Translations under genes and position numbers: made by a program
Shown: one piece after another, positions 6,865 through 19,581 of the stretch
Layout: the number at the start of each line of letters is the position of its first letter
Numbering within the stretch: position 1 is the stretch's first letter
The notes under the pieces: model-generated
Told to the model about the DNA's origin: nothing
Database searches by the model: none
The model's input: the letters and a program-made list of their open reading frames with translations, nothing else
DNA from: Desulfobulbus propionicus DSM 2032
GTDB lineage: Bacteria > Desulfobacterota > Desulfobulbia > Desulfobulbales > Desulfobulbaceae
NCBI RefSeq assembly: GCF_000186885.1
Contig: NC_014972.1
Span: 2,940,001 to 2,972,000 of the forward strand
Direction of reading: 5' to 3'
Length of the DNA stretch: 32,000 bases

Positions 6865-8093
6865 GCCGCATCCTCCTGTTCGACAAAGCGACGGAAAAAG
6901 GCGGCACCCGAATCGAGGGTCAAGCCGTTCTCTTGTACGGCCGCCAGAACATTGGCCTCGGTGTAGGTGCGGCCCGAGGGATGCTTTACTCCCCGTGAAT
7001 CGTAAAGGAACATCGGCACCGGCCAGTCTTCGTGGGTACGGCGGTGAATAGGGGTGTAATGATCCATGGTCACCACCAGGCGGAAGGGCTCCCCGCGACG
7101 CTCCATCGCTTCAACGATCGGGGTGACAATCCTGCGGTCAAAATCGGTCACCGCCTGGACCTTCTCCCCGGCCAACCCCTGATGCCCGGTCTCATCCGGA
7201 GCCTCGACATGGACCAGGACAAAATCGTCCCGCTCCAGCACTTTGAGCGCGGCCTCTGCCTTGCCTTCGTAATTGGTGTCGAGATAGCCGGTGGCGCCGG
7301 GCACCTCGATCACCTCCAACCCCCCGAGCACGCCAAGTCCCTTGAGCAGGTCCACCGCCGAGATCAGGCCGCCGCGAATGCCGAAACGGTGCTCCAGGGT
7401 TTCCATGGCCGGCCTCCGGCCCTCGCCCCACAGCCAAATACCGTTGGCCGTTCGTTTGCCCAACCGCTGCCGCTCCCGATTGACCGGATGATCGGCAAAC
7501 ATCTCTGCCGCCCGGGCCATCAGGACACGGAAGGGTTCGACCTGCTCATAGACTTGAAAATAACCGGCCACATCCTGATCGGAATGATCGTGGGGCGGCA
7601 CGGTGGTGAAGCCGGCGGGCAACTCGCCGTGATAGACCAACAGGTGACGATAGCTGACGCCGGGATAGAGGGTCAGTTCCTTGCTGCCGCATTCGGCCTG
7701 GAGAGCGGCGATGAGCTGGCGGCTTTCCTCGGTGGTGATGTGGCCGCTGCTGTAATCGACCATGATCAGGCGACCGTCGCCCGGCCGCTCCACATGCACG
7801 AGATTGCAGCGGAAGGCGATTTCCTCGGCAGTCAGTTCCACGCCCAGGCTTGCGGCTTCCAGCGGGGCCCGGCCGGTATAATACCGTTCGGGCTCGTAGC
7901 CCATCAGGGAAAGGTTGGCGACGTCACTGCCCGGCGGATAGCCCTCGGGCACGGTCCGCACCACGAGCATCTCGGCGGATCGCGCCAGCCGATCCATGGT
8001 CGGCGTTTCGGCCACCTCCAGGGGTGTCTGGTTATGCAAGGCCGGGACCGGGACATCGCCCATGCCGTCGCCGATAAGCAGAATATATTTCAT
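6861..8093 (-). CDS. cofactor-independent phosphoglycerate mutase (ApgM)-like metalloenzyme; probable non-orthologous homoserine kinase
   Basis: MKYILLIGDGMGD..., ...VHVEAPDETGHQG... and ...TMDHYTP... are the alkaline-phosphatase-superfamily metal-site motifs of archaeal-type iPGM. The gene lies 30 nt downstream of hom on the same strand. Confidence 0.85.
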   Translation of the reverse strand: MKYILLIGDGMGDVPVPALHNQTPLEVAETPTMDRLARSAEMLVVRTVPEGYPPGSDVANLSLMGYEPERYYTGRAPLEAASLGVELTAEEIAFRCNLVHVERPGDGRLIMVDYSSGHITTEESRQLIAALQAECGSKELTLYPGVSYRHLLVYHGELPAGFTTVPPHDHSDQDVAGYFQVYEQVEPFRVLMARAAEMFADHPVNRERQRLGKRTANGIWLWGEGRRPAMETLEHRFGIRGGLISAVDLLKGLGVLGGLEVIEVPGATGYLDTNYEGKAEAALKVLERDDFVLVHVEAPDETGHQGLAGEKVQAVTDFDRRIVTPIVEAMERRGEPFRLVVTMDHYTPIHRRTHEDWPVPMFLYDSRGVKHPSGRTYTEANVLAAVQENGLTLDSGAAFFRRFVEQEDAA

Positions 8094-8123
8094 AGGATCA
8101 CACCCAATAGATTCGGGGAAAAT

Positions 8124-9428
8124 TTATTCTTCCTCGAGGATGCGGATTTTGACCACCGGTGCGGTCACGCTCGCCAACCGGTTGATCTCGTCCAGGGCCG
8201 CGCTCACCGCCGATTCCTTGGCGCTGTGGGTGACGATCACCACGGCGACGGCCCCGATCTTCTTGCGTCCCTTCTGAATAACCGATTCGATGCTGATCTC
8301 GTACTTGCTGAGAATCCCGGCAACGGTGGCGAGGACGCCCGGTTGATCAAGCACGGTGAGTCGGAAATAGTAGGGGCCGCACAATTCGTCCATGGGAGTG
8401 ATCCGTCGCGGCCGCATTGCTTCGGGCAGATAGGACAGGGCTGGCACCCGACCGATGGAATGACAGCGGATGTTGCGGGCGATATCGACCACATCGGCGG
8501 CCACCGCACTGCCGGTGGGGATGGAACCGGCCCCCAGACCGTAGAGCAGTACGTTGCCCACGGTGTCGCCATGAAAATGGATGGCGTTGTAGGCGCCATT
8601 GATCGAGGCCAGCAGGTGGCCCTGGGGGACCATGGTCGGGTGGACTCGTGCCTCGACGTGGTCACCGTGGTTACGGCTGATGGCCAGCAGCTTGATTCGA
8701 CAGCCGAGCTCGCGGGCCAGCTCGATGTCCATGGGCTCGATGCGCGAGATGCCCTCGGTGGCGATCTCGTGATGGGTGATCGGCATGCCGTAGGCCATGG
8801 TCATGAGAATGGCCAACTTATGGGCGGTGTCAATGCCCTCGACGTCATAGGTGGGGTCCGCCTCGGCAAAACCCAATTTCTGCGCGTCCTTGAGCACTTC
8901 GGCAAAAGGCATGCCCTCATCGGTCATGCGGGTCAGAATATAGTTGGCGGTGCCGTTCATGATGCCCATGATCGACAGAATCCGATTGGCCACCAGCCCC
9001 TCCTTGAGCGCCTTGATCACCGGGATGCCTCCGCCCACGCTGGCTTCGAACCCGACCTCGACGCCCCGCTTGGCGGCGGCGGCAAAGATCTCGGCGCCTT
9101 CCTGAGACAGCAGGGCCTTGTTGGCGGTGATCACATGTTTGCCATGGGCGATGGCCTCGAGGACAAAAGTCTTGGCCGGCTCGATGCCGCCGATCAGTTC
9201 GACGATGATGTCGATGTCTGGATCGTTGATCAGGGTCCGGGCGTCTTGGGTCAAGGGAATATCGCTAAACCGCTCTGGCAGGGCCGCGGTGCCATGATCG
9301 GCAATACCCGCCAGACGGATGGTCATGCCGGTTCGCCTGACCAGCCGTTCCCGCTGCGACAGCAGCACTTCCGCCAACCCTTTGCCCACCGTGCCAAAAC
9401 CGATCAGTCCGACTTTGATTTCCTTCAT
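8124..9428 (-). CDS. hom: homoserine dehydrogenase with C-terminal ACT domain (434 aa)
   Basis: MKEIKVGLIGFGTVGKG is the NAD(P) fold. Also present: ...VITANKALL..., ...EASVGGGIPVI... and ...MGIMNGTANYILT.... Track ORF trimmed from 9500 to ATG 9428, which has GGGGA upstream. Confidence 0.93.
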   Translation of the reverse strand: MKEIKVGLIGFGTVGKGLAEVLLSQRERLVRRTGMTIRLAGIADHGTAALPERFSDIPLTQDARTLINDPDIDIIVELIGGIEPAKTFVLEAIAHGKHVITANKALLSQEGAEIFAAAAKRGVEVGFEASVGGGIPVIKALKEGLVANRILSIMGIMNGTANYILTRMTDEGMPFAEVLKDAQKLGFAEADPTYDVEGIDTAHKLAILMTMAYGMPITHHEIATEGISRIEPMDIELARELGCRIKLLAISRNHGDHVEARVHPTMVPQGHLLASINGAYNAIHFHGDTVGNVLLYGLGAGSIPTGSAVAADVVDIARNIRCHSIGRVPALSYLPEAMRPRRITPMDELCGPYYFRLTVLDQPGVLATVAGILSKYEISIESVIQKGRKKIGAVAVVIVTHSAKESAVSAALDEINRLASVTAPVVKIRILEEE

Positions 9429-9790
9429 GCCCGTCCCCATCCGAAAAAAAAAGAGTAATTTTATGGGCCGATTTCTACCCGCTTTCCCGTTCCTTGTCAA
9501 AAACTATGCACCGCCAGACCACTCCTTCACCTCCACCGTCCCCTGGTCGCCCAGCCGCTCCGACCACCCGCCGCCATGGGGACCACGCGAAATAAACCTC
9601 TGTTTTCCTGATCTTTGCACCTCTCATCACTTTGCCTGATCCGAACTATCATTTTTCGTGGCGCATTCGGACAAGGTACAGTATATTCCCCAAGCTGATG
9701 AGGGATCATTCATTAATCGGCTCGTTATTTTGTCAATCATATAAAGATGTTACTCAACCATTCTTTGAACCAACCATGGAGGAATCCGGT

Positions 9791-10468
9791 ATGAACATCC
9801 TTACTTTCGGTCCGAACGGCAGCGGCAAAGGCACCCAGGGCGCCATCATCAAACAAAAATACGGCATCGACCACATCGAGTCCGGCGCCATCTTTCGCGA
9901 GCATATCAAGGGCGGCACCGAATTGGGCAAGAAAGCCAAGGCCTACATCGATCGCGGCGATCTGGTTCCCGACGAGATCACCATCCCCATGGTGCTCGAA
10001 ACCCTGGCCAAATCCAAGGACAAGGGCTGGTTGCTTGACGGCTTTCCCCGTTCGGTTGCCCAGGCAGAGGCTCTGGACAAGGCCCTGAAAGAGGCCGGCA
10101 TGAAACTGGACTACGTGGTCGAGATCGTTCTTGACCGTGAAATCGCCAAGGAGCGCATCATGGGCCGCCGCCTCTGCGCCAACGACAACAACCATCCCAA
10201 CCACATCGCCTTTGAGGCCATCAAGCCGGTGGAAAAAGACGGCAAACTCGTCTGCCGTGTCTGCGGTGGCGAGCTTTCCGCCCGCGCCGACGATCAGGAC
10301 GTGGACGCCATCGACAAGCGTCACAAGATCTATTACGATACCGAGACCGGCACCACGGCCGCGATCAACTATTTCAAGAAGCTGCCGGGCGGCGCTCCGG
10401 TGATTTCCGTTGACGGCTCCCTGGCCATCAAGGAAGTCTCCGAACTGATCATGAAGCAACTGCCGTAA
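9791..10468 (+). CDS. adk: adenylate kinase, long form with a metal-binding lid (225 aa)
   Basis: P-loop GPNGSGKGTQ and the lid CANDNNH...CRVCGG. Track ORF trimmed from 9632 to ATG 9791, with GGAGGA 7 nt upstream. Confidence 0.95.
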   Translation: MNILTFGPNGSGKGTQGAIIKQKYGIDHIESGAIFREHIKGGTELGKKAKAYIDRGDLVPDEITIPMVLETLAKSKDKGWLLDGFPRSVAQAEALDKALKEAGMKLDYVVEIVLDREIAKERIMGRRLCANDNNHPNHIAFEAIKPVEKDGKLVCRVCGGELSARADDQDVDAIDKRHKIYYDTETGTTAAINYFKKLPGGAPVISVDGSLAIKEVSELIMKQLP

Positions 10469-10493
10469 GCCATCGGTTGTTGTTCCTGTTCAT

Positions 10494-10532
10494 AAACGTT
10501 TCCGTACCTCTGGGTGCGGAAACGTTTTTTTG
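10494..10532 (+). terminator. rho-independent terminator after adk
   Basis: AAACGTTTCCG, then a 12-nt loop, then CGGAAACGTTT, followed by a T-run. Confidence 0.85.
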
Positions 10533-10568
10533 TTGGAGAGCGCCCCCTTTTCTTTTATGGTTGGCGGC

Positions 10569-11153
10569 ATGAAAACACTTATTTCGACCAATTTGGTCCA
10601 ATCGATCATGGCCAAGGAGGCCTTTGTCAAGGAATCGGTCGACGATATTCTCCTCCTGAGCGAGTGGATCCGGGAGGTGTTCGAGGATGGCGGCAAGCTG
10701 CTCATTTTCGGCAACGGTGGCAGCGCCGCCGATGCCCAACATCTGGCGGCCGAATTCGTCAACCGCTTTCTGATCAATCGCCGTCCCCTGCCCGCCCTGG
10801 CCCTGACCACCGACAGTTCGGTGCTCACCTCGATCGCCAACGATTTTTCCTATGAACTGGTTTTTGCCAAGCAAATTCAGGCGCTGGGCAAACCCGAGGA
10901 TCTGGCCCTGGGCATTTCCACCTCCGGCACTTCGGCCAATGTGGTCAAGGCCATGGAGGCTGCGCGCACCATCGGCATGAAAACCGTGGCCCTCACTGGC
11001 GGCACGGCCCGCCCCGGCGGTGACTTGGCCGCCATCTGCGATCTGGTGCTCAACGTCCCGTCCGATTCCACGCCGCATATCCAGGAAACCCACCTCTGGG
11101 TGGAACACCTGTTGTGTGAGATCGTTGAACGACAAATGTTCGCCTCTTCCTGA
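10569..11153 (+). CDS. gmhA: SIS-domain phosphoheptose isomerase (GmhA/DiaA family)
   Basis: LLIFGNGGSAADAQHLAAEF, ...ISTSGTSANV... and ...HLWVEHLLCE.... The start must lie after the adk terminator, so ATG 10569 is chosen. ATG 10557 is possible. Confidence 0.85.
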   Translation: MKTLISTNLVQSIMAKEAFVKESVDDILLLSEWIREVFEDGGKLLIFGNGGSAADAQHLAAEFVNRFLINRRPLPALALTTDSSVLTSIANDFSYELVFAKQIQALGKPEDLALGISTSGTSANVVKAMEAARTIGMKTVALTGGTARPGGDLAAICDLVLNVPSDSTPHIQETHLWVEHLLCEIVERQMFASS

Positions 11154-11192
11154 CCTGTTTGCTTTCTTTTCGTCTTTTTCCCGCATACGCCC

Positions 11193-12152
11193 ATGGCCGA
11201 CTATCCTCCGGTTCCCCTTGACTTCAGCGGACTGAACACCTATTCCGTGTATGGCCGCCACTCCAAGGTGAGTGTCGCCGATTTCGCTCATCCCCTCCAA
11301 CCGGGAATGACGGTGCGCCAGTTGCTGGCCGCCCTGCCCTCTCAACTGGCGGGAGTCGATTTCCCGGATCTGGTGCGGCGTATTGCCGTGGCGCATGAGC
11401 AGCAACGGCCGATCCTGCTGGGCATGGGTGCCCATGTGATCAAGGTGGGACTCAACCCCATCCTGATTGATCTGATGCGGCGGAGGATCATCACCGCTGT
11501 GGCCCTCAACGGCGCAGGCATCATCCATGACACGGAAATCGCCATGGTGGGCCGCACCTCGGAGGAGGTGGCCGATGTGCTCGGTGCCGGGGCCTTTGGC
11601 GCGGCCAAGGAAACCGGCGAGGTGCTCAACGGCGCCATCATCGACGGTGCCCGACGAGGCATCGGCATCGGCCAGGCGGTGGGCGAGATGTTGCTGGCCA
11701 ACGGCTTTCCCCACAACGACCAGAGCCTGCTCGCCATGGCGGCGCACCTCAAGATACCGGTGACGGTGCATGTGGCCATGGGCACGGATATCATCCACAT
11801 CCATCCCTCGGTGGACGGCGCGGCCATCGGCCAGGCCGGCCACCACGATTTCCGGGTGTTCTGCCGGCTGGTGAGCGAACTGGAAGGCGGCGTCTATCTC
11901 AATGTCGGCTCGGCCGTGCTCCTGCCCGAGGTTTTTCTCAAGGCCCTGACCGTGGTGCGCAACCTCGGCCACCAGGTCAAACAGTTCACCACCGCCAACT
12001 TCGATTTTATCCGCCATTACCGGCCGGCGACCAACGTGGTCCACCGCCCGACCCTGGAAGGCGGCAAGGGATTCAACTTCACCGGCCATCACGAGCTGTT
12101 GCTGCCGTTGCTGGCGGCGGCCGTCCTCGACGAAATTGACAACCATGGGTAA
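11193..12152 (+). CDS. conserved protein with deoxyhypusine-synthase-like sequence pattern; function unknown
   Basis: Clean 319-aa ORF with normal composition. LLGMGAHVIKVGLNPILIDLMRRRIITAVALNGAGIIHDTEIAM resembles the DHS-family pattern (Gly-rich strand, helix, then a TTxGxxxxD-like segment). By-eye assignment only. Confidence 0.55.
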   Translation: MADYPPVPLDFSGLNTYSVYGRHSKVSVADFAHPLQPGMTVRQLLAALPSQLAGVDFPDLVRRIAVAHEQQRPILLGMGAHVIKVGLNPILIDLMRRRIITAVALNGAGIIHDTEIAMVGRTSEEVADVLGAGAFGAAKETGEVLNGAIIDGARRGIGIGQAVGEMLLANGFPHNDQSLLAMAAHLKIPVTVHVAMGTDIIHIHPSVDGAAIGQAGHHDFRVFCRLVSELEGGVYLNVGSAVLLPEVFLKALTVVRNLGHQVKQFTTANFDFIRHYRPATNVVHRPTLEGGKGFNFTGHHELLLPLLAAAVLDEIDNHG

Positions 12153-12217
12153 AGACAGTATATGGCCGCTACCACTGAAACCGACATCGCAAGCCGCCAT
12201 CGCAACAGGACCGGTGC

Positions 12218-13177
12218 ATGAGAACATTGCTGCGCATAGGGACGCGCGCCAGCCTGCTGGCCGTGACCCAATCGACCTGGGTCAAGACCCAGATTGAACA
12301 GGCCCATCCGGGAACCCGGGTGGAGTTGGTGAAAATCACCACCAAGGGGGATCGCATCCTCGACGTGCCGCTGGCCAAGGTCGGCGGCAAGGGGTTGTTT
12401 GTCAAGGAGATCGAAGACGCCCTCCTGGCCGGTGAGGTCGACCTGGCGGTGCATTCGATGAAGGATGTGCCCACCGAACTGCCGGAGGGGTTGCACATCG
12501 GCGTCATTCCGGTGCGGGAAACGCCCTACGATGCCTTTCTCTCCAAGACATGCACCACGCTTGCCGATCTGCCGCAGGGCGCCACCATCGGCACCTCCAG
12601 CCTGCGGCGCAAATCACAGCTGATGGCGCTGCGGCCAGACCTGGACATCGTTGATCTGCGCGGCAACATCGACACCCGGCTACGCAAGCTCGATGAGGGC
12701 GTCTATGACGCCATCATTCTGGCCGGCGCCGGACTGCGGCGTCTGCACTTGGAACACCGGATCACGGCCCTGCTGGAACCCACGCAAATGCTGCCGGCCA
12801 TCAGCCAAGGAGCGCTGGGCATTGAACTGCGCCAGGATGACACCGAACTGGCCGACGGGCTGCGCTTCCTTCACCACGGAGAAACCGCCGTCGCCGTCGA
12901 GGCCGAACGCGCCTTTCTGCTGCGCCTGGAAGGCGGTTGCCAAGTGCCCATCGCGGCCCACGCCACGCTCGACAGCGGTTCGGTCACCCTGACGGGCCTG
13001 ATTGCCAGCGTCGATGGCCGGCAAATCCTCAAGGAAGCAACTACCGGCCCAGCCGAGCAGGCAGCACGCCTCGGTGCGCAATTAGCGCAAACCTTGCTTG
13101 ATCGAGGCGGCAAAGCCATTCTCGATGCGGTCTATTGCAGCGCATCAACGTCCCCCCATTCACCCCTTTCTGCCTGA
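12218..13177 (+). CDS. hemC: hydroxymethylbilane synthase (porphobilinogen deaminase)
   Basis: RIGTRASLLAVTQ, TTKGDRILD, GGKGLFVKEIE and AVHSMKDVP. Confidence 0.95.
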   Translation: MRTLLRIGTRASLLAVTQSTWVKTQIEQAHPGTRVELVKITTKGDRILDVPLAKVGGKGLFVKEIEDALLAGEVDLAVHSMKDVPTELPEGLHIGVIPVRETPYDAFLSKTCTTLADLPQGATIGTSSLRRKSQLMALRPDLDIVDLRGNIDTRLRKLDEGVYDAIILAGAGLRRLHLEHRITALLEPTQMLPAISQGALGIELRQDDTELADGLRFLHHGETAVAVEAERAFLLRLEGGCQVPIAAHATLDSGSVTLTGLIASVDGRQILKEATTGPAEQAARLGAQLAQTLLDRGGKAILDAVYCSASTSPHSPLSA

Positions 13178-13188
13178 ACACGCGACCA

Positions 13189-14769
13189 GTGACCACACAC
13201 CATTCCACCCCATCGTCCACCAACGGCAAAGTGTATCTCGTCGGGGCCGGCCCCGGCGATCCCGGCCTGATCACCCTGCGCGGCAAATACCTGCTCGAAC
13301 ACGCCGAAGTGGTCGTGTACGATTATCTGGCCAACCCCAAGCTGCTCAGCTATGTACCCAAGACCGCCCAGCTGATCTACGCCGGCAAGAAGGGCGGCGG
13401 CCTGCACGCCTTCACCCAGCAAGGGATCAACCGTCTGCTGGTCGATCATGCCCAACAGGGCAAGATGGTGGTCCGCCTCAAGGGTGGCGACCCCTTTATC
13501 TTTGGCCGTGGTGCCGAGGAGATCGAGGAGCTGGTCAGCGAGGGGATTGATTTCGAGGTGGTGCCGGGCGTTACCTCGGCCACCGCCGCCGCCACCTACG
13601 CGGGCATTCCCATCACCCACCGCGAGTACACCGCCTCGGTGGCCTTTGTCACCGGCCACGAGGATCCGACCAAGAAATTTTCCAACATCTCCTGGGAAAA
13701 ACTGGCCACCGGTGCGGGCACCATTGTCATTTACATGGGCATCAAGACCCTGCCGAGCATCACCCAAAAACTGATCGATCACGGCCGCTCACCGGACACC
13801 CCCGTAGCCGTGGTCCGCTGGGCCTCGACCCCGCAACAGCGCTCGGTGGTCGGCACCCTGGCCACCATCTGCGATGTGGTGGCCCAGGCGGATATCAAGC
13901 CGCCGGCCCTGGTGATCGTTGGCGAGGTGGTCAAGCTGCGCAGTACCATCGACTGGTTCGAGAAACGGCCGCTGTTCGGCCGGCGCATCGTGGTCACTCG
14001 CACCCGTGAGCAGGCCAGCGACCTCGTAGCCAAACTGGAGGAATACGGGGCCGAGTGTCTCGAATATTCGACCATTCATATCGAACCAGTGGCCGATTAC
14101 CGGGTCTTGGACCAAGCCCTTGCCGAGATCCACGCCTACGCATGGTTGCTGTTCACCAGCCTCAACGCGGTGACCTATTTCTTCCAGCGACTCTTTGTCC
14201 TTGGGCATGACAGCCGCCATCTGGCCGGAACGAAGATCGCCGTGGTCGGCAAGGCGACCGCCGAGGAGTTAAAGAAATACGGCCTCAAGGCTGACCTTAT
14301 CCCGGATAAATTCACAGGAGAAGGATTGGCCAAGGCCTTGGTCGAAACGGAGGTCAACGGCAGCCGCATCCTTCTGCCCCGAGCGCTCAAGGCCAGCGAC
14401 CTGTTACCGGAAACCTTGATCGACGCCGGCGCCGAGGTGACCATCGCCCCAGTGTACCAGAATGTGCCGCCTCAAGGGCGCAAGGAGGAATTGCGCGACC
14501 AGCTGGAGAGCGGTTCCATCGATCTGATCACCTTCACCAGCTCGTCCACGGTGACCAATTTCCTGGCCATGCTCGACGCGGGCAGCGACGAGGAACTGCA
14601 CCGGCTGATGGATGCGGTGCGCATTGCCGCCATCGGCCCGATCACCGCCGAAACGGTTCGAGAACACGGTCTGCGGGTGGATATCCAACCCGAACGCTAT
14701 ACCATCGACGACATGGTGCATGCGATTGTCGCCGCCTATCGGAATAAGCCGGGACAACCGCAGGACTGA
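13189..14769 (+). CDS. cobA: bifunctional uroporphyrinogen-III C-methyltransferase / uroporphyrinogen-III synthase (CobA-HemD fusion)
   Basis: N-terminal half: VYLVGAGPGDPGLITLRG..., ...LKGGDPFIFGRG... (SUMT). C-terminal half from RRIVVTRTREQASDL... is HemD-like. The start is uncertain. GTG 13189 lies 12 nt after the hemC stop. The track uses TTG 13135. Neither has a clear SD. Confidence 0.9.
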   Translation: MTTHHSTPSSTNGKVYLVGAGPGDPGLITLRGKYLLEHAEVVVYDYLANPKLLSYVPKTAQLIYAGKKGGGLHAFTQQGINRLLVDHAQQGKMVVRLKGGDPFIFGRGAEEIEELVSEGIDFEVVPGVTSATAAATYAGIPITHREYTASVAFVTGHEDPTKKFSNISWEKLATGAGTIVIYMGIKTLPSITQKLIDHGRSPDTPVAVVRWASTPQQRSVVGTLATICDVVAQADIKPPALVIVGEVVKLRSTIDWFEKRPLFGRRIVVTRTREQASDLVAKLEEYGAECLEYSTIHIEPVADYRVLDQALAEIHAYAWLLFTSLNAVTYFFQRLFVLGHDSRHLAGTKIAVVGKATAEELKKYGLKADLIPDKFTGEGLAKALVETEVNGSRILLPRALKASDLLPETLIDAGAEVTIAPVYQNVPPQGRKEELRDQLESGSIDLITFTSSSTVTNFLAMLDAGSDEELHRLMDAVRIAAIGPITAETVREHGLRVDIQPERYTIDDMVHAIVAAYRNKPGQPQD

Positions 14770-15157
14770 GCAACGCTGTCGCGGAATTCAGCTGCCCTCT
14801 TCCAAGGGAAAACGGTCGGCGGCAACCCGATCCGACCGTCAACCGGAGGAAAAGGAGAACATCGTCTGCGCCGTGTGCGGGGCAGCCATTACCCACCGTG
14901 ACCATGTCATCCGGGTCAACAACCGTCACGAACACGCCTTTTTCAACCCGACCGGCATTGCCTTCCTCATCCGTTGTTTCCACACGGCACCAGGCGTTGC
15001 CGTGTGGGCTGAACCGAGTACCGCGTTTACCTGGTTTCCGGGCTATTGTTGGCAGATTGTCCTTTGCGCCGCCTGTCAAAGCCACCTTGGCTGGCTTTTT
15101 TCACCGATGGCTGGCGGTCGATCCTTTTATGGCCTCATCGCCGACCGCCTGTCCTGA
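14720..15157 (+). CDS. cereblon-like CULT (thalidomide-binding-type) domain protein; domain spans 14861-15154; start codon unresolved
   Basis: CAVCGAAITHRDHVIRVNNRHEHAFFNPTGIAFLIRCFHTAPGVAVWAEPSTAFTWFPGYCWQIVLCAACQSHLGWLFSPMAGGRSFYGLIADRLS aligns almost without gaps to my recollection of Magnetospirillum MsCI4 and the human CRBN C-terminal domain. It has two CxxC pairs plus W/W/W/F cage residues. ATG 14720 is the only canonical start that keeps both CxxC pairs. Confidence 0.85.
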   Translation: MRLSPPIGISRDNRRTEQRCRGIQLPSSKGKRSAATRSDRQPEEKENIVCAVCGAAITHRDHVIRVNNRHEHAFFNPTGIAFLIRCFHTAPGVAVWAEPSTAFTWFPGYCWQIVLCAACQSHLGWLFSPMAGGRSFYGLIADRLS

Positions 15158-15345
15158 CCCATCACCCCGCCGGGTTCTCCTTCCGGCCGCCACACCGCAC
15201 CTGGGCCTGCAACGGGTGCGATTCGCTCTTTTTCAAGAATAAATCCAAACAACTACCCGTGATCCGCTCCGCCTTTTTTTCCATTGTTTTTCACAAGACA
15301 GAACAGTACATTATGTCCAGTTAACGTAGAAACCGAGCGACGGTC

Positions 15346-16053
15346 ATGCTTCCTCTCCTCCGACATTTCCTCCTTTTTGCCCTTGTGTTCGCGCTTGTCC
15401 CGCAGGCCGCAAGGGGAAGTGCGACTGAACGAGATCCGGCACCGAACGGTACCGCGTGGGATAACGCGGTGACCAGTCTATTGGCCGCCGGCATGTATGG
15501 TTTCGATGCGGATGCGCTTGACGGCCTGACCGTGCAGTTGCAACACTCCGACCACTTCGCTCCCGGCCTCAACCCCGGCAAGCATCAACTCGGCGGCCAG
15601 GCCATCACCTTTTCCTATGAAGGCTCGGCCGGCTTGCTCGAATTCTCGGCAGGCTATATTCTCTCGACCCAGCAGAATGGCACTGAACCGGGAACCGTCT
15701 TCATGAGTGTCGACCCTGGACTGAACAAGGACTTCGATCCCGGCCGCTCCTGGTTTCTCGCCCTCGATCTTTCCCGCTCCTACCAGATCGATGACGGCCT
15801 CTCCTTTAGCTTGGGCAACAGGGTCATGCTCCTCAACAACCCCTTCAACACCGAAGAGGGACAAATTTTTTCGCTGCTCTTCAACATGCCCATCTCCTAT
15901 AAAGATTATCTCACCATCACCCCGGAGTTCCACTGGTCCCGTCCTCTCTCCGATGCTGCCGGCAGCAACCAAGCCACGATCTCCGGAACCGATGAGAACC
16001 AGGGAAGCGACGGTACGTTCTATGGTGGTGTCTCCATCAAATTTTCGTACTGA
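15346..16053 (+). CDS. small outer-membrane beta-barrel protein (hypothetical)
   Basis: Signal peptide MLPLLRHFLLFALVFALVPQAARG. Alternating-hydrophobic strands (ITFSYEGSAGLLEFSAGYIL, SWFLALDLSRSY, LSFSLGNRVMLL). C-terminal GGVSIKFSY, an aromatic terminus. Confidence 0.6.
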   Translation: MLPLLRHFLLFALVFALVPQAARGSATERDPAPNGTAWDNAVTSLLAAGMYGFDADALDGLTVQLQHSDHFAPGLNPGKHQLGGQAITFSYEGSAGLLEFSAGYILSTQQNGTEPGTVFMSVDPGLNKDFDPGRSWFLALDLSRSYQIDDGLSFSLGNRVMLLNNPFNTEEGQIFSLLFNMPISYKDYLTITPEFHWSRPLSDAAGSNQATISGTDENQGSDGTFYGGVSIKFSY

Positions 16054-16225
16054 TTCCCCTTAGCCAACAGCGGCCCCTTCCGTGTTTTCCTTGACAGCGA
16101 ATGTTTTCCCTTTTCTTTTTGCGAAAAACGCAGGAAGCTAAAGAACTGTTGCACCATTGACAATCGTGAGCAATCTCGCTTCGCTTTCCCACTCATCCTT
16201 CAAACCAGAGACAGGAGCGCCCACA

Positions 16226-17944
16226 GTGAACGTAACACCTCTGTGCACAACCGAACCAACCCGAGCATCGTCTATCCGCGCCAGGATGCGAGCCTTGGCG
16301 CTTGCAATCGCCTGCTGTTTGGTGGCCAGCCTTGTGGCATGGCCCCCGGTAAATGCCGCCCAACCAGCCGCTCCGGCAAAGCGTCAGGTGATCTTTCTGC
16401 CCTTTGACGTTGAAATTTCAGGTTCTTACGCGTATCTGCGCACCGGTTTGTCCACCACCCTTGCCAGTCGATTGGCCACCCGCGCCAATATCGCGGCGGT
16501 CGCCCAAGGAGACGCCTCGGAACAAATGGCCGGTGCGCTAAAATCCGGCGAGTATGGCATTTTCAGCCAACGGCTCCGCCAATCCGGGGCGGAATACCTC
16601 ATCATGGGATCGCTAGCCCCCAAAGCCGGCCAATTTGAACTGACCAGCTACGTCTTTTCGCAAACATCGCTCCAGGCCCCCAAAAAGTTTCAACAGTCGT
16701 TTCAAACGGTGGATGACGTCATGACCGCGGTTGACAACCTCGCCTGGGCGATCAGCGGCGCGGTTTTTGGCAAGCCCAAGCCAGAGGCCGCAGCTGGTGG
16801 AGGCTCCGGAATGGCCGCGTTTCAAACCGCGCATCCGGAGCGCGCCTATCGCGAGGGCCTGTTTGCCGGCACGGCAACCGGCCTGGAAGCTGGCGGTCCC
16901 TTTGAGTTGGTCAGCAGTTACCGCAGCAAGGGCATTCCCGCCGAAGCCAGGGACATGAACGCAGGCGACCTCGACGGCGACGGCACGCCCGAGATTGTCT
17001 TGCTGACCAGTTCGGCCCTGATGATCTACAGAAATGAAGAAGGACAGTTCCGCATGCTGGCCACAGCGGAGTTGCCGAACCATCTACGCTATCATTCGGT
17101 CACCCTGGGCGACCTGAACAACAATGGACAGCAGGAAATCTACATCAGCGGCAGCAATGGCGACTATCCCGACTCGTCCGCCCTCGAGTGGAACGGCAAA
17201 AAGGTGACCACCCTGTTTGAACATGTCGGCTGGTACCTGCGGACCATGAGCGCCCCCGGAGAGCCTATCGCGCTCATCGGCCAAAAGACCCCGGTTTCGG
17301 AACGCGATGGCGCCGACATTTACGAGATGGCGCTCGACGGCCGCGGCGGGGTCAACGCGGGCAACAAGCTGCCCCTGCCCCGAGGCATCAACATTTTCGA
17401 CTTTGCCCGGGCCGATCTCGATCGCGACGGCGTGCAGGAAACGATCGTGCTCAACAACAGCAACCGGCTCCAGGTGTACGATGCCTCCGGTAGCCTCCGC
17501 TTTACCAGCAGCGAAATCCATGGGGCGAGCAACAACTTTTTCGGCACCCTAACCAGTCAGAACAATGCGGCCAACTCCGAGAAGGAAACCGTCTGGGTGC
17601 GGACCCGCATCGTGATCGCCGATCTCGACATGGATGGCGGCAATGACGTGCTGGTTGGTCGCAATCGCCTGGAAACGGTCAGCTTCATGCCCAACCTTCG
17701 CTATTTCGACGGCAGCTCCCTGGCCGCCTACACCTGGGTGAACAGCGGTTTGACCCGCCTGTGGGAAACGAAAAAGATTCCCGCGTACATCACCAATTAC
17801 CAGTATGCCGGCACGCAACGGGAGAACGGCCACTATCAGGTTGTCTTTGCCGAGGCCGCAAGCAGTTATCCCTTTGTGTTCTGGAATGCGCCCACCACCT
17901 TTCTCAACAGCTACACCGTGCGCGTCAACGCGGCGGCCAAATAA
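16226..17944 (+). CDS. secreted/periplasmic FG-GAP (VCBS) beta-propeller repeat protein with an N-terminal alpha/beta module
   Basis: GTG 16226 has AGGAG 7 nt upstream. Alternative starts are 16157 (track) and ATG 16286. Signal peptide ...RARMRALALAIACCLVASLVAWPPVNA-AQ. Repeats DLDGDGTPEIVL, DLNNNGQQEIYI, DLDRDGVQETIVL, DLDMDGGNDVLV. Confidence 0.75.
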   Translation: MNVTPLCTTEPTRASSIRARMRALALAIACCLVASLVAWPPVNAAQPAAPAKRQVIFLPFDVEISGSYAYLRTGLSTTLASRLATRANIAAVAQGDASEQMAGALKSGEYGIFSQRLRQSGAEYLIMGSLAPKAGQFELTSYVFSQTSLQAPKKFQQSFQTVDDVMTAVDNLAWAISGAVFGKPKPEAAAGGGSGMAAFQTAHPERAYREGLFAGTATGLEAGGPFELVSSYRSKGIPAEARDMNAGDLDGDGTPEIVLLTSSALMIYRNEEGQFRMLATAELPNHLRYHSVTLGDLNNNGQQEIYISGSNGDYPDSSALEWNGKKVTTLFEHVGWYLRTMSAPGEPIALIGQKTPVSERDGADIYEMALDGRGGVNAGNKLPLPRGINIFDFARADLDRDGVQETIVLNNSNRLQVYDASGSLRFTSSEIHGASNNFFGTLTSQNNAANSEKETVWVRTRIVIADLDMDGGNDVLVGRNRLETVSFMPNLRYFDGSSLAAYTWVNSGLTRLWETKKIPAYITNYQYAGTQRENGHYQVVFAEAASSYPFVFWNAPTTFLNSYTVRVNAAAK

Positions 17945-18096
17945 TTTTCTCTTTTGCCGACGGGGCCTGTCGAGGCCGTCACCCTTCGACGGGCCCCCTC
18001 CCCACCCATCCTCCAACCTCTTGTTTAATCGTTACTCTTTCACATCCCGCACCTGACCATTGCCGGTAAAAATATTTTTACTCAGGTAAAAAAAAC

Positions 18097-18125
18097 TTGA
18101 CGACTAGGTAAACTTACTCTATCGT
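18097..18125 (+). promoter_or_regulatory. candidate sigma70 promoter with an A/T-rich upstream element for the porin gene
   Basis: TTGACG (18097-18102), 17 nt spacer, TATCGT (18120-18125). It is preceded by AAAAATATTTTTACTCAGGTAAAAAAAA. Implies a leader of about 75 nt ending in AAAGGAGAGGAATATG. Confidence 0.4.
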
Positions 18126-18207
18126 GAAGCCATCCAAGATATGTTCAAAAGGGTTTCTCGAACGAGGGGAACCTGTACGCAACATGAGATAAAAAAAGGA
18201 GAGGAAT

Positions 18208-19581
18208 ATGAAAAAAGTACTTGTTGCAGGCGCTGCCCTGATGGTGGCTGGTGGGATGTATGCCGCTACCGCTTCTGCTGCCGCTGTCGAGCCCGGCGTG
18301 AAGATCACCGGCGATGCCCGTGTGCGTTTGTTTTATCAAAATGACAACTACGGTGATTTCGGCAATGATGACGTTGATGAGTCCAACACCGACATGGATT
18401 CCCGCGTTCGTCTGAATATCACCGGGACCGCCGCTGGTGGTGCCTATGCCAAGGCTCGTATCCGCATGTATGAGGGATACACCACCGACATCGACAACGA
18501 CCCAAGCATCTCTTCCCTGGACAACAGCAACATCTGGGTCGACATCGCCCATGTCGGCATTCCGTTCAATGACAACTTCACCCTGGAAGCAGGTAAATAC
18601 CGCTCCACCTACGGCCCCTTGGGCACCACCTACAACTTTTTCTATGATGACGTTCATCTGAGCGGTCTGCGCGGTATCATCAAGTTCAACGACGTGACCA
18701 TCAACCCGTTCATCGAGTGGGTGGAAGAGTCCCAAACCTATGCCAAATATGATGTTGACGGTGATCCAAACACGAAAGATACCGACAATCCAAACAAAAT
18801 CAAAGACAACGACGCCATGCGCTACGGTGCCCATATCAAGGGGCAGCTCAACAAGGATTGGGCGGTTGGCGGTATGCTCGGCTATCAGAGCGATGAACGG
18901 GACGAGGATAATGTTCTTCCGCACCTCAATTATCAGAATGAAGGGTTCTTTGGTTCCATTTACACCAACGGCAAGGTCAACGCCTTTGGCTTTGTCGCCG
19001 AACTCGCCGCCAACGACGGCAATCTGAACAACTTCAACTCCTGGGAAGATGATGCCGACGCGGTTACCGGCCCTGACCTGATCGGCTCCGATGACACCGG
19101 CTTCGGTGGATACATGTTCCCCAACTACCAGATCGACAAATTGAACATCGGGTTGAATCTGGGTTTCACCGATGGCGGTTTTCAACCGGACCGCGCCTTT
19201 GGTTTCGTCATGCTCGGCTCCTCGGATAACAGCAGAATCAGCGCTGCCCGCATCGGCGACACCGGTGACTGGTTCTGGGGCGGCTTGGTGGCCAACTATG
19301 CGATCAACGAATCCCTCAAGCTGACCGGTAACTTGGTTTACGCCGAGGTTGACGCCTGGGATTCCGAAGGTCCCGATGGAGACGGACCGGATACACGGTC
19401 AGGTGCGCTTGGAGCCGCTCTGGACAGCGCATGGGAGTTGTCTGCGGTTCTGCAGTACACCATCAGCAAGGGCGCGGATGTCTATTTCTCCGCCGGCTAC
19501 CTGGCACCCGAATTTGAAGACTCCACCCTGGAAGACGACGGAGCCTTCGGTGCTTTGACCCGCTTCGAGCTCAAGTTCTAA
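18208..19581 (+). CDS. large outer-membrane porin-like beta-barrel (457 aa), Asp/Asn-rich loops
   Basis: Signal peptide MKKVLVAGAALMVAGGMYAATASA-AA. Strong SD AAAGGAGAGG. Amphipathic strands throughout. C-terminal TRFELKF. The opposite-strand ORF 18145-19185 is a shadow. Confidence 0.75.
   Translation: MKKVLVAGAALMVAGGMYAATASAAAVEPGVKITGDARVRLFYQNDNYGDFGNDDVDESNTDMDSRVRLNITGTAAGGAYAKARIRMYEGYTTDIDNDPSISSLDNSNIWVDIAHVGIPFNDNFTLEAGKYRSTYGPLGTTYNFFYDDVHLSGLRGIIKFNDVTINPFIEWVEESQTYAKYDVDGDPNTKDTDNPNKIKDNDAMRYGAHIKGQLNKDWAVGGMLGYQSDERDEDNVLPHLNYQNEGFFGSIYTNGKVNAFGFVAELAANDGNLNNFNSWEDDADAVTGPDLIGSDDTGFGGYMFPNYQIDKLNIGLNLGFTDGGFQPDRAFGFVMLGSSDNSRISAARIGDTGDWFWGGLVANYAINESLKLTGNLVYAEVDAWDSEGPDGDGPDTRSGALGAALDSAWELSAVLQYTISKGADVYFSAGYLAPEFEDSTLEDDGAFGALTRFELKF

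Follow-up and report, generated by a model that had tools for sequence, protein, structure and literature searches.

Few drug-binding sites are exploited as heavily in today's pharmacology as the pocket of cereblon (CRBN). A nearly identical pocket is retained by bacteria. The domain that forms it, CULT, was defined as a family in 2015 (PMC4287342). Its bacterial member MsCI4, from Magnetospirillum gryphiswaldense, binds thalidomide and uridine with low-micromolar affinity; without ligand, about one third of the domain, including a hairpin and two tryptophans of the aromatic cage, is unfolded, and it folds upon binding (PMC4449219). The natural degron of CRBN is reported to be a C-terminal cyclic imide, arising either spontaneously or via PCMT1 (PMC11974815).

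Here, we analyzed a CULT gene of Desulfobulbus propionicus DSM 2032, located on a 32,000-nucleotide stretch of DNA (assembly GCF_000186885.1, contig NC_014972.1, positions 2,940,001 to 2,972,000, forward strand). We refer to this whole stretch as the window and give all coordinates in its numbering. The gene encodes an intact bacterial relative of the cereblon thalidomide-binding domain. The best overall explanation, and one that we consider very probable, is a cytoplasmic single-domain bacterial CULT protein that would act as a zinc-stapled reader of uracil or cyclic-imide rings. The identity as such was already known: RefSeq names the product 'cereblon family protein', and it is an ordinary, routine member of a large family, which comprises 2,268 clusters at 50% identity for E ≤ 1e-3 and 1,179 for E ≤ 1e-10. 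New here are a correction of the start codon, an order-wide overlap with the tetrapyrrole gene cobA/hemD, the lack of a family-wide partner gene and a pattern in the N-terminal tail. None of these details settles what bacterial CULT proteins do, and the D. propionicus gene gives no answer as to why bacteria keep the pocket.

The CULT domain, its zinc site and its aromatic cage

We compared the protein with all PDB chain sequences by phmmer. The MsCI4 entries (4v32/4v2y) matched with E = 9e-26 and without a gap over residues 49-144, in which 42 of 96 residues are identical (44%). Human, mouse and chicken cereblon followed at E = 1e-11 to 7e-9, and the next non-cereblon match had E = 0.12. This bears out the near position-for-position likeness to MsCI4 and CRBN (the latter at ~1e-11) that a preliminary description of this DNA, made from the sequence alone, had asserted. 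The best-scoring chain was the Y101F mutant of MsCI4 (4V32), which carries Phe where the D. propionicus protein has F127. A family profile built from 23 members returned MsCI4 at E = 5e-36 and CRBN at ~1e-17, compared with 0.004 for YPEL5, 0.004 for MsrB, 0.25 for MSS4 and 1.5 for DHX58. Membership was established by these PDB sequence and profile searches together with the fold, because no dedicated model in Pfam or NCBIfam scores the protein above threshold.

All motifs quoted in the preliminary description are in frame, namely CAVC at residues 50-53, HEHAFFNP at 70-77, FTW at 103-105, YCW at 109-111, CAAC at 116-119, LGWLF at 123-127 and FYGLIADRL at 136-144 (for coordinates see Table 1). 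For residue conservation, the domain from 78 further homologues was aligned with the D. propionicus protein (n = 79). Judging from the alignment to MsCI4, the two CxxC pairs occupy the positions of a Zn(Cys)4 site, and three Trp together with F127 those of the aromatic cage; the Cys and Trp are present in 79/79, in agreement with the intact zinc site and cage described before. The earlier statement that the cage is fully conserved also holds, with position 127 being either Phe (64/79) or Tyr (15/79). Further invariant residues (79/79) are C86, G92, F103, F106, G108, G124 and F136, and the NPxG motif of the inserted hairpin (Table 1) has likewise been described for MsCI4 (PMC4449219). Since the pocket residues are invariant while the rest of the sequence diverges to ~38% identity, the pocket is, as read from the alignment, under strong purifying selection.

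Outside the zinc site and the cage, conservation extends to H72 (77/79), H70 (70/79) and C86 (79/79). A second Cys is found at position 93 in 50 of the 79 homologues, where the D. propionicus protein has Val. In human CRBN, the residues matching H70 and H72 are presumably not His.

Such additional conserved residues, C86 and H72 as well as H122, would also suit a β-tent enzyme instead of a binder, i.e. an MsrB-like methionine-sulfoxide reductase, an enzyme akin to GFA or a hydrolase of cyclic imides. The same idea draws on weak local matches to SelR/MsrB in Pfam (PF01641, E = 0.092), in NCBIfam (NF004036, E = 0.0035) and in the profile search of the PDB (0.004). However, the MsrB matches cover only ~15 residues around the second CxxC, and with 13.1 bits against a cut-off of 24.9 for PF01641 and 17.1 bits against 179 for NF004036 both lie far below the curated thresholds for an MsrB/SelR protein. 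The CULT match outscores them by over 20 orders of magnitude when single sequences are searched and by over 30 with the profile, and MsCI4 has been crystallized with dozens of imides, which remain intact in its PDB entries (Foldseek match list). We therefore regard an enzyme as very unlikely. The remaining Pfam signal is Yippee-Mis18 (PF03226), the only family at E < 0.01 (18.5-19.4 bits), which could be taken to indicate a Yippee/Mis18-type zinc protein. This score stays below the gathering score of 26.6, and YPEL5 at 0.004 compares with MsCI4 at 5e-36, as befits a sister family. A decaying or spurious open reading frame (ORF) is excluded by functional residues that are intact and invariant across 79 species. 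The chance that the gene encodes a Yippee-type protein or is such a relic is practically negligible.

AlphaFold2, run with a 23-sequence alignment, predicted eight strands with a pLDDT above 90 for residues 47-145, and the predicted model has the β-tent fold. In a Foldseek search of the PDB, the top matches were MsCI4 and cereblon entries only. Ligand-bound MsCI4 was matched with a target-normalized TM score of 0.85-0.94 and an r.m.s.d. (root mean square deviation) of ~1.3 Å at 42-43% identity, and the thalidomide-binding domain of human CRBN with an r.m.s.d. of 1.1-1.6 Å at 28% identity. The superposition proposed in the preliminary description thus places the predicted domain, as a whole, on both structures. 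Its portrayal as a stand-alone single domain was right in that the protein contains no other domain, and needs amending in that ~47 disordered residues precede CULT.

Start codon and N-terminal tail

The database protein closest to the product, P0001 ('cereblon family protein [Desulfobulbus propionicus]', 99% identical), is a 94-residue model that begins at a GTG codon within the first zinc motif. Because this model lacks the invariant Cys50, the annotated start is probably wrong, and the true start probably lies upstream, inside cobA/hemD. The frame is open from 14612 to the stop codon at 15155-15157 and offers only ATG 14720 and TTG 14726 as starts for a product of the 145-residue type. Homologues are typically 135-150 residues long with a similar N-terminal extent, i.e. 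40-50 residues ahead of the first Cys; the median over 140 cluster representatives is 49.5. In many relatives the equivalent position (-43 or -40) holds a TTG only.

We further compared the loci themselves. Each species was represented by one genome in the scan, and at least 580 genomes had a relative; the comparison covers the best 80 loci, 41 of the Desulfobulbales type and 39 from other lineages, and three further contigs were compared separately. In most of the 42 loci with cobA/hemD upstream, 94-127 nt separate the cobA/hemD stop (14767-14769 in the window) from the codon of the first Cys, and this distance varies in multiples of 3. It equals 1 modulo 3 in 39 of the 42 (P ~ 9e-16 if spacers vary freely), and the spacer is therefore coding, in frame with the CULT domain. 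For Ca. Electrothrix sp. YB6 (L081) and two JGI contigs (L082/L083), independent gene callers let CULT overlap the end of cobA/hemD by 50 nt. Hence the gene does follow hemC and cobA/hemD, as had been described, and most probably begins 50 nt inside the latter instead of directly after it. The start correction is one increment of this analysis, and it has a practical side: expression of the annotated 94-residue protein would probably yield a misfolded product, for which the corrected gene model can be used instead.

A longer start at ATG 14612 was set aside since relatives' gene calls begin at the position of ATG 14720, and so was an antisense ORF at 14642..15085, as the homology lies on the plus strand. 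Truncation also affects other database entries: P0015 (88 aa) lacks the entire first CxxC, and P0025 begins two residues before it.

As an alternative to independent initiation, +1 ribosomal frameshifting within the overlap could append CULT to the C-terminus of CobA/HemD. At every locus, the frame of CULT already stands open upstream of the stop codon of cobA/hemD, the +1 relation is kept in 39/42, and ATG 14720 has no strong Shine-Dalgarno sequence ahead of it. However, an ATG, TTG or GTG is found in the last 16-49 nt of cobA/hemD at almost all loci, often right after an in-frame stop. Moreover, the spacer is long (187-354 nt) in five loci, where a start codon follows downstream of the cobA stop, and a plain overlap suffices to explain the conserved frame. 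Judging from start codons, spacers and frame, we consider frameshifting extremely unlikely.

The corrected start restores a tail in front of the domain, of which residues 8-43 have a pLDDT below 50. Tails of 116 diverse cluster representatives, compared without gaps and anchored on the first Cys, share a pattern that is absent from the published family description. Hydrophobic residues account for 42-50% at positions -34 to -30 and are followed by an Arg/Lys peak at -29 (33%) and a Gly/Ser/Pro stretch. Acidic residues make up 21-50% at most positions between -19 and -5, Arg/Lys reaches 48% at -4, and -2 is hydrophobic in all. A run of three hydrophobic residues followed by Arg/Lys is present in 40 of the 122 tails (shuffled tails, 19.4 ± 3.7), at a median of 32 residues ahead of the Cys. 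Relatives in the Desulfobulbales carry the motif as LR(I/V)xL, which may resemble LRVVK, the ClpX-docking peptide of SspB. The extreme N-terminus conserved in Desulfobulbales (MRLSPPIG / LLPITGT) was not counted, because it overlaps, in the other frame, the conserved C-terminal helix of HemD (DMVxAIVxYY).

AlphaFold models gave no sign of the tail docking onto its own domain, the tail having a pLDDT below 50 both in the D. propionicus protein and in P0013 (shallow alignments of 20-23 sequences); the latter carries a strong IYCFR motif and is nevertheless predicted to be disordered there. A conserved pattern in a tail previously thought featureless suggests a docking element. The tail may thus serve in docking and is the most plausible place for binding a partner. 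The 47 residues ahead of the domain have no match to a Lon family in Pfam, and their hydrophilic, charged and presumably disordered nature leads us to expect a cytoplasmic location.

Gene neighborhood inside and outside the Desulfobulbales

On the plus strand, the gene order is adk, a GmhA-like SIS gene, a GSU2086-family gene, hemC, cobA/hemD and, as the last gene of the array, CULT (Table 1). cobA/hemD lies immediately upstream on the same strand in 41/41 Desulfobulbales-type loci, in the window and in the three extra contigs. The 41 include all loci labeled Desulfobulbales, Desulfobulbaceae, Desulfobulbus, Desulfogranum, Desulfopila, Desulforhopalus or Desulfosediminicola. What precedes cobA/hemD varies: 22 loci have hemC there, and most of the remainder have adk directly. 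The genes downstream of CULT are variable as well.

Table 1 Features of the D. propionicus CULT locus, in coordinates of the window.
Feature	Position	Strand	Basis or remark
Strong terminator-like 15-bp hairpin with T-run, directly after adk, 3 nt before the SIS ORF	10494..10527		
hemC (porphobilinogen deaminase)	12218..13177	+	Pfam Porphobil_deam 7e-87
cobA/hemD fusion (uroporphyrinogen-III C-methyltransferase and uroporphyrinogen-III synthase)	13135..14769, start provisional	+	Pfam TP_methylase 1e-53, HEM4 2e-70; NCBIfam agrees
Overlap of cobA/hemD 3' end and CULT 5' end, 50 nt; CULT frame +1 relative to cobA/hemD	14720..14769	+	Sequence; relatives' gene calls
CULT coding sequence, most probable; 145 aa and stop	14720..15157	+	ATG 14720, possibly TTG 14726; homologue lengths, relatives' gene calls, frame conservation
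N-terminal tail, aa 1-47; basic, Ser/Pro-rich, acidic patch PEEKEN just before the domain	14720..14860	+	Predicted disordered; pLDDT, family pattern
CULT β-tent domain (cereblon thalidomide-binding type), aa 48-145, 98 residues	14861..15154	+	phmmer, profile, pLDDT, Foldseek
First putative zinc motif, C50-A-V-C53	14867..14878	+	Aligned to MsCI4 C24/C27; Cys 79/79
RefSeq start codon GTG (codon 52; 94-aa model, P0001)	14873..14875	+	Removes Cys50; P0001 begins MCGAAITH
NPxG motif, N76-P77-T78-G79; inserted β-hairpin shaping the pocket	14945..14956	+	N, P, G 79/79
Putative cage residues W105 (15032-15034) and W111 (15050-15052)	15032..15052	+	Aligned to MsCI4 W79, W85; 79/79
Second putative zinc motif, C116-A-A-C119	15065..15076	+	Aligned to MsCI4 C90/C93; 79/79
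Putative cage residues W125 and F127 (W-L-F)	15092..15100	+	Aligned to MsCI4 W99, Y101; W 79/79
Weak terminator-like hairpin with T-run, 57 nt past the CULT stop	15214..15238	+	5 pairs; consensus scan; site count in the region not above shuffle expectation

Judging from the overlap of the two genes, CULT expression would be transcriptionally, and probably also translationally, coupled to that of CobA/HemD. The 39 other loci stem from Desulfobacterales, Desulfovibrionales, Rhodospirillales, Spirochaetota, Leptospirales, Gammaproteobacteria and Acidobacteriota, and none of them has cobA, hemC or another tetrapyrrole gene within 8 kb of CULT. The conservation of the neighborhood that the preliminary description had wished to see examined is therefore confined to the Desulfobulbales type. 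The tetrapyrrole link is therefore genuine and old within a single order, without being a trait of the family as a whole.

This link could reflect a function: CULT might work with CobA/HemD by binding a by-product of the pyrrolinone/lactam or maleimide type that arises from uroporphyrinogen or precorrin, by regulating the enzyme or by chaperoning it. In favor of such a role, cobA/hemD and CULT are never separated (41/41, the window and three contigs) while their flanks vary, and overlap and frame relation are conserved (39/42). Furthermore, the structure list shows that the MsCI4 cage accepts lactam and imide rings of the five-membered kind (piperidin-2-one and similar ligands), and human UROD, an enzyme of the heme pathway, is a CRBN substrate (PMC11974815). 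On the other hand, the linkage is absent from all 39 loci of other lineages, and an overlap of 17-50 nt makes separation deleterious, such that the adjacency can be a frozen accident; it may persist merely because breaking overlapping genes would truncate one of them. The best 150 cluster representatives include no CobA/HemD-CULT fusion, and the C-terminus of CobA/HemD is Asn or Gln in only 5 of the 41 loci. A tetrapyrrole-linked role hence appears quite unlikely to us. CobA/HemD as a C-terminal cyclic-imide client was rejected on the latter count, its terminal residue in D. propionicus being Asp. Independent of these considerations, the Desulfobulbales linkage offers a concrete place to seek a physiological partner or ligand.

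Outside the Desulfobulbales, we clustered all ORFs within 5 kb of CULT in an all-against-all comparison. No neighbor was common to the 39 loci, apart from generic histidine kinases (7 loci) and genes shared by small groups of closely related genomes. The flanking genes fall into 154 Pfam families among 129 proteins with no shared theme, examples being SDR, TauE, FIST, CysZ, MFS, Der, Era, YceG, GlgB, PolA, GT4 and MBL. In five loci (L030, L044, L070, L078, L080), an asparagine-synthase-like gene of ~640-720 aa (Asn_synthase and GATase) lies ~2 kb upstream in divergent orientation. The numbers are small, and the genomes are four related ones of the Desulfobacterales type, two labeled Desulfobacteraceae and two Desulfobacterales, and one metagenome-assembled genome of the Acanthopleuribacteraceae (Acidobacteriota). 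Asparagine synthases as a class handle Asn/Gln amide chemistry. At the top of the representative search stood P0023 (1737 aa), a eukaryote-like cereblon model with ~22 exact tandem copies of a 60-residue CULT fragment; rather than a real multi-CULT protein, this is almost certainly an artefact of the assembly or of the gene model.

Within the window, the strong hairpin behind adk suggests that the array from SIS to CULT is a transcription unit apart from adk, and the weak hairpin past CULT may mark the end of the operon. The GmhA-like SIS gene, which stays below the NCBIfam equivalog cut-offs, and the GSU2086-family gene, which has no Pfam match, together span 10530-12152; this pair is kept between adk and hemC in 16-18 Desulfobulbales loci. 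In the cable bacterium Ca. Electrothrix sp. YB6, an inserted ATPase gene of the AAA/SMC_N type (L081, 1226-2416) separates hemC from cobA/hemD, with the CULT overlap intact. Downstream of CULT, after a gap of 188 nt, follow an ORF with a signal peptide, an FG-GAP protein and a porin, as expected from the envelope cluster noted before. They occupy 15346-19581 and comprise a 235-aa ORF without an assigned family (signal-peptide-like N-terminus; C-terminal ...SIKFSY resembling an outer-membrane barrel), an FG-GAP repeat protein of 595 aa and a Porin_4 protein; about 11-18 of the 41 Desulfobulbales loci have this three-gene cluster downstream of CULT. Two long shadow ORFs without a family match, attributable to the G+C content of ~60%, lie at 7032-9458 (plus strand, 808 aa), opposite homoserine dehydrogenase and phosphoglycerate mutase genes, and at 10449-12227 (minus strand, 592 aa), opposite the SIS and GSU2086-family genes. 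An Rfam scan of the window returned one tRNA only.

Proposed mechanism and comparison with known systems

With this information at hand, we propose how the protein might work as a ring reader. It would be produced together with CobA/HemD, and its four Cys would coordinate a structural zinc ion that staples two β-sheets, as in MsCI4 and cereblon. By analogy with these proteins, the cage (W105, W111, W125 and F127, with the N76-P77 hairpin) would accept a five- or six-membered ring through a -CO-NH-CO- or lactam face. Candidate ligands would be uracil or uridine, succinimide or glutarimide, or the C-terminal cyclic imide of a peptide. If MsCI4 is a guide, hairpin and cage would be partly unfolded in the free protein and fold upon ligand binding. 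Since the protein has no effector domain, its output must go through its surface or tail, and a ligand-dependent surface, the tail or both may recruit a partner. As for the physiological role, we tentatively prefer that the protein reads damage of the cyclic-imide type or a metabolite resembling uracil.

A number of observations weigh against this proposal. The geometry of the cage derives from a global superposition of a predicted model. No Pfam or NCBIfam model scores above threshold for the CULT protein, so that the profile search suggested in the preliminary description found the domain only through the PDB. The D. propionicus tail shows a degenerate form of the motif, QRCR at -32 to -29. 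The strong Shine-Dalgarno sequence that is missing before ATG 14720 is missing before TTG 14726 too. Lastly, our literature search found nothing on the physiological role of bacterial CULT proteins; the earlier remark that ligand and role are unknown fits the literature found (PMC4287342, PMC4449219), also as regards the physiological ligand of MsCI4.

The proposal could be carried further, into a prokaryotic pathway that reads cyclic imides with stand-alone CULT proteins as its recognition module. The targets would be proteins damaged at their C-terminus by an aspartimide or glutarimide, or else a metabolite of the imide or lactam kind, and the tail would tether the loaded reader to a partner, for example an AAA+ protease. 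In Desulfobulbales, translational coupling with CobA/HemD would wire this pathway to precorrin-2/siroheme synthesis. We regard so extensive a scheme as unlikely, and our preference stays with the single-domain reader of uracil or cyclic-imide rings.

Compared with the described β-tent proteins, this reader stands apart from Yippee/Mis18, MsrB (SelR), MSS4 and the RIG-I C-terminal domain. These share two CxxC pairs on a two-sheet β-tent and a weak likeness at the second CxxC; in the profile search, the other β-tent families score at least 12 orders of magnitude weaker than CULT proteins. They also have no aromatic tri-Trp cage (PMC4287342). Secreted eukaryotic CULT proteins are similar in being a single CULT domain without a Lon domain (PMC4287342), whereas the N-terminus of the D. 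propionicus protein is hydrophilic and a cytoplasmic location is expected.

Cereblon, which serves the CRL4 E3 ligase as substrate receptor, contains a homologous CULT domain with like cage residues, including the Phe. In contrast to cereblon proper, the 145-residue protein has neither the Lon-like N-terminal domain nor a DDB1-binding region, and the strand from the hairpin to the first cage Trp is probably ~5 residues longer here than in human CRBN. Bacteria are not known to have a ubiquitin system, and the step downstream of binding must therefore differ from that of CRBN.

The closest likeness is to MsCI4 (MGR_0879, 'cereblon isoform 4'; PDB 4V2Y), with which the protein shares the single-domain family, the four zinc-site Cys, the tri-Trp cage and the NPxG motif. 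The fourth cage residue is Phe127, as F402 in human CRBN, where MsCI4 has Tyr101, and ~49 residues precede the first Cys, compared with 23 in MsCI4. Finally, the D. propionicus gene overlaps a tetrapyrrole operon, whereas CULT genes at Rhodospirillales-type loci (L028, L064, L079) adjoin, for example, SDR or Der GTPase genes.

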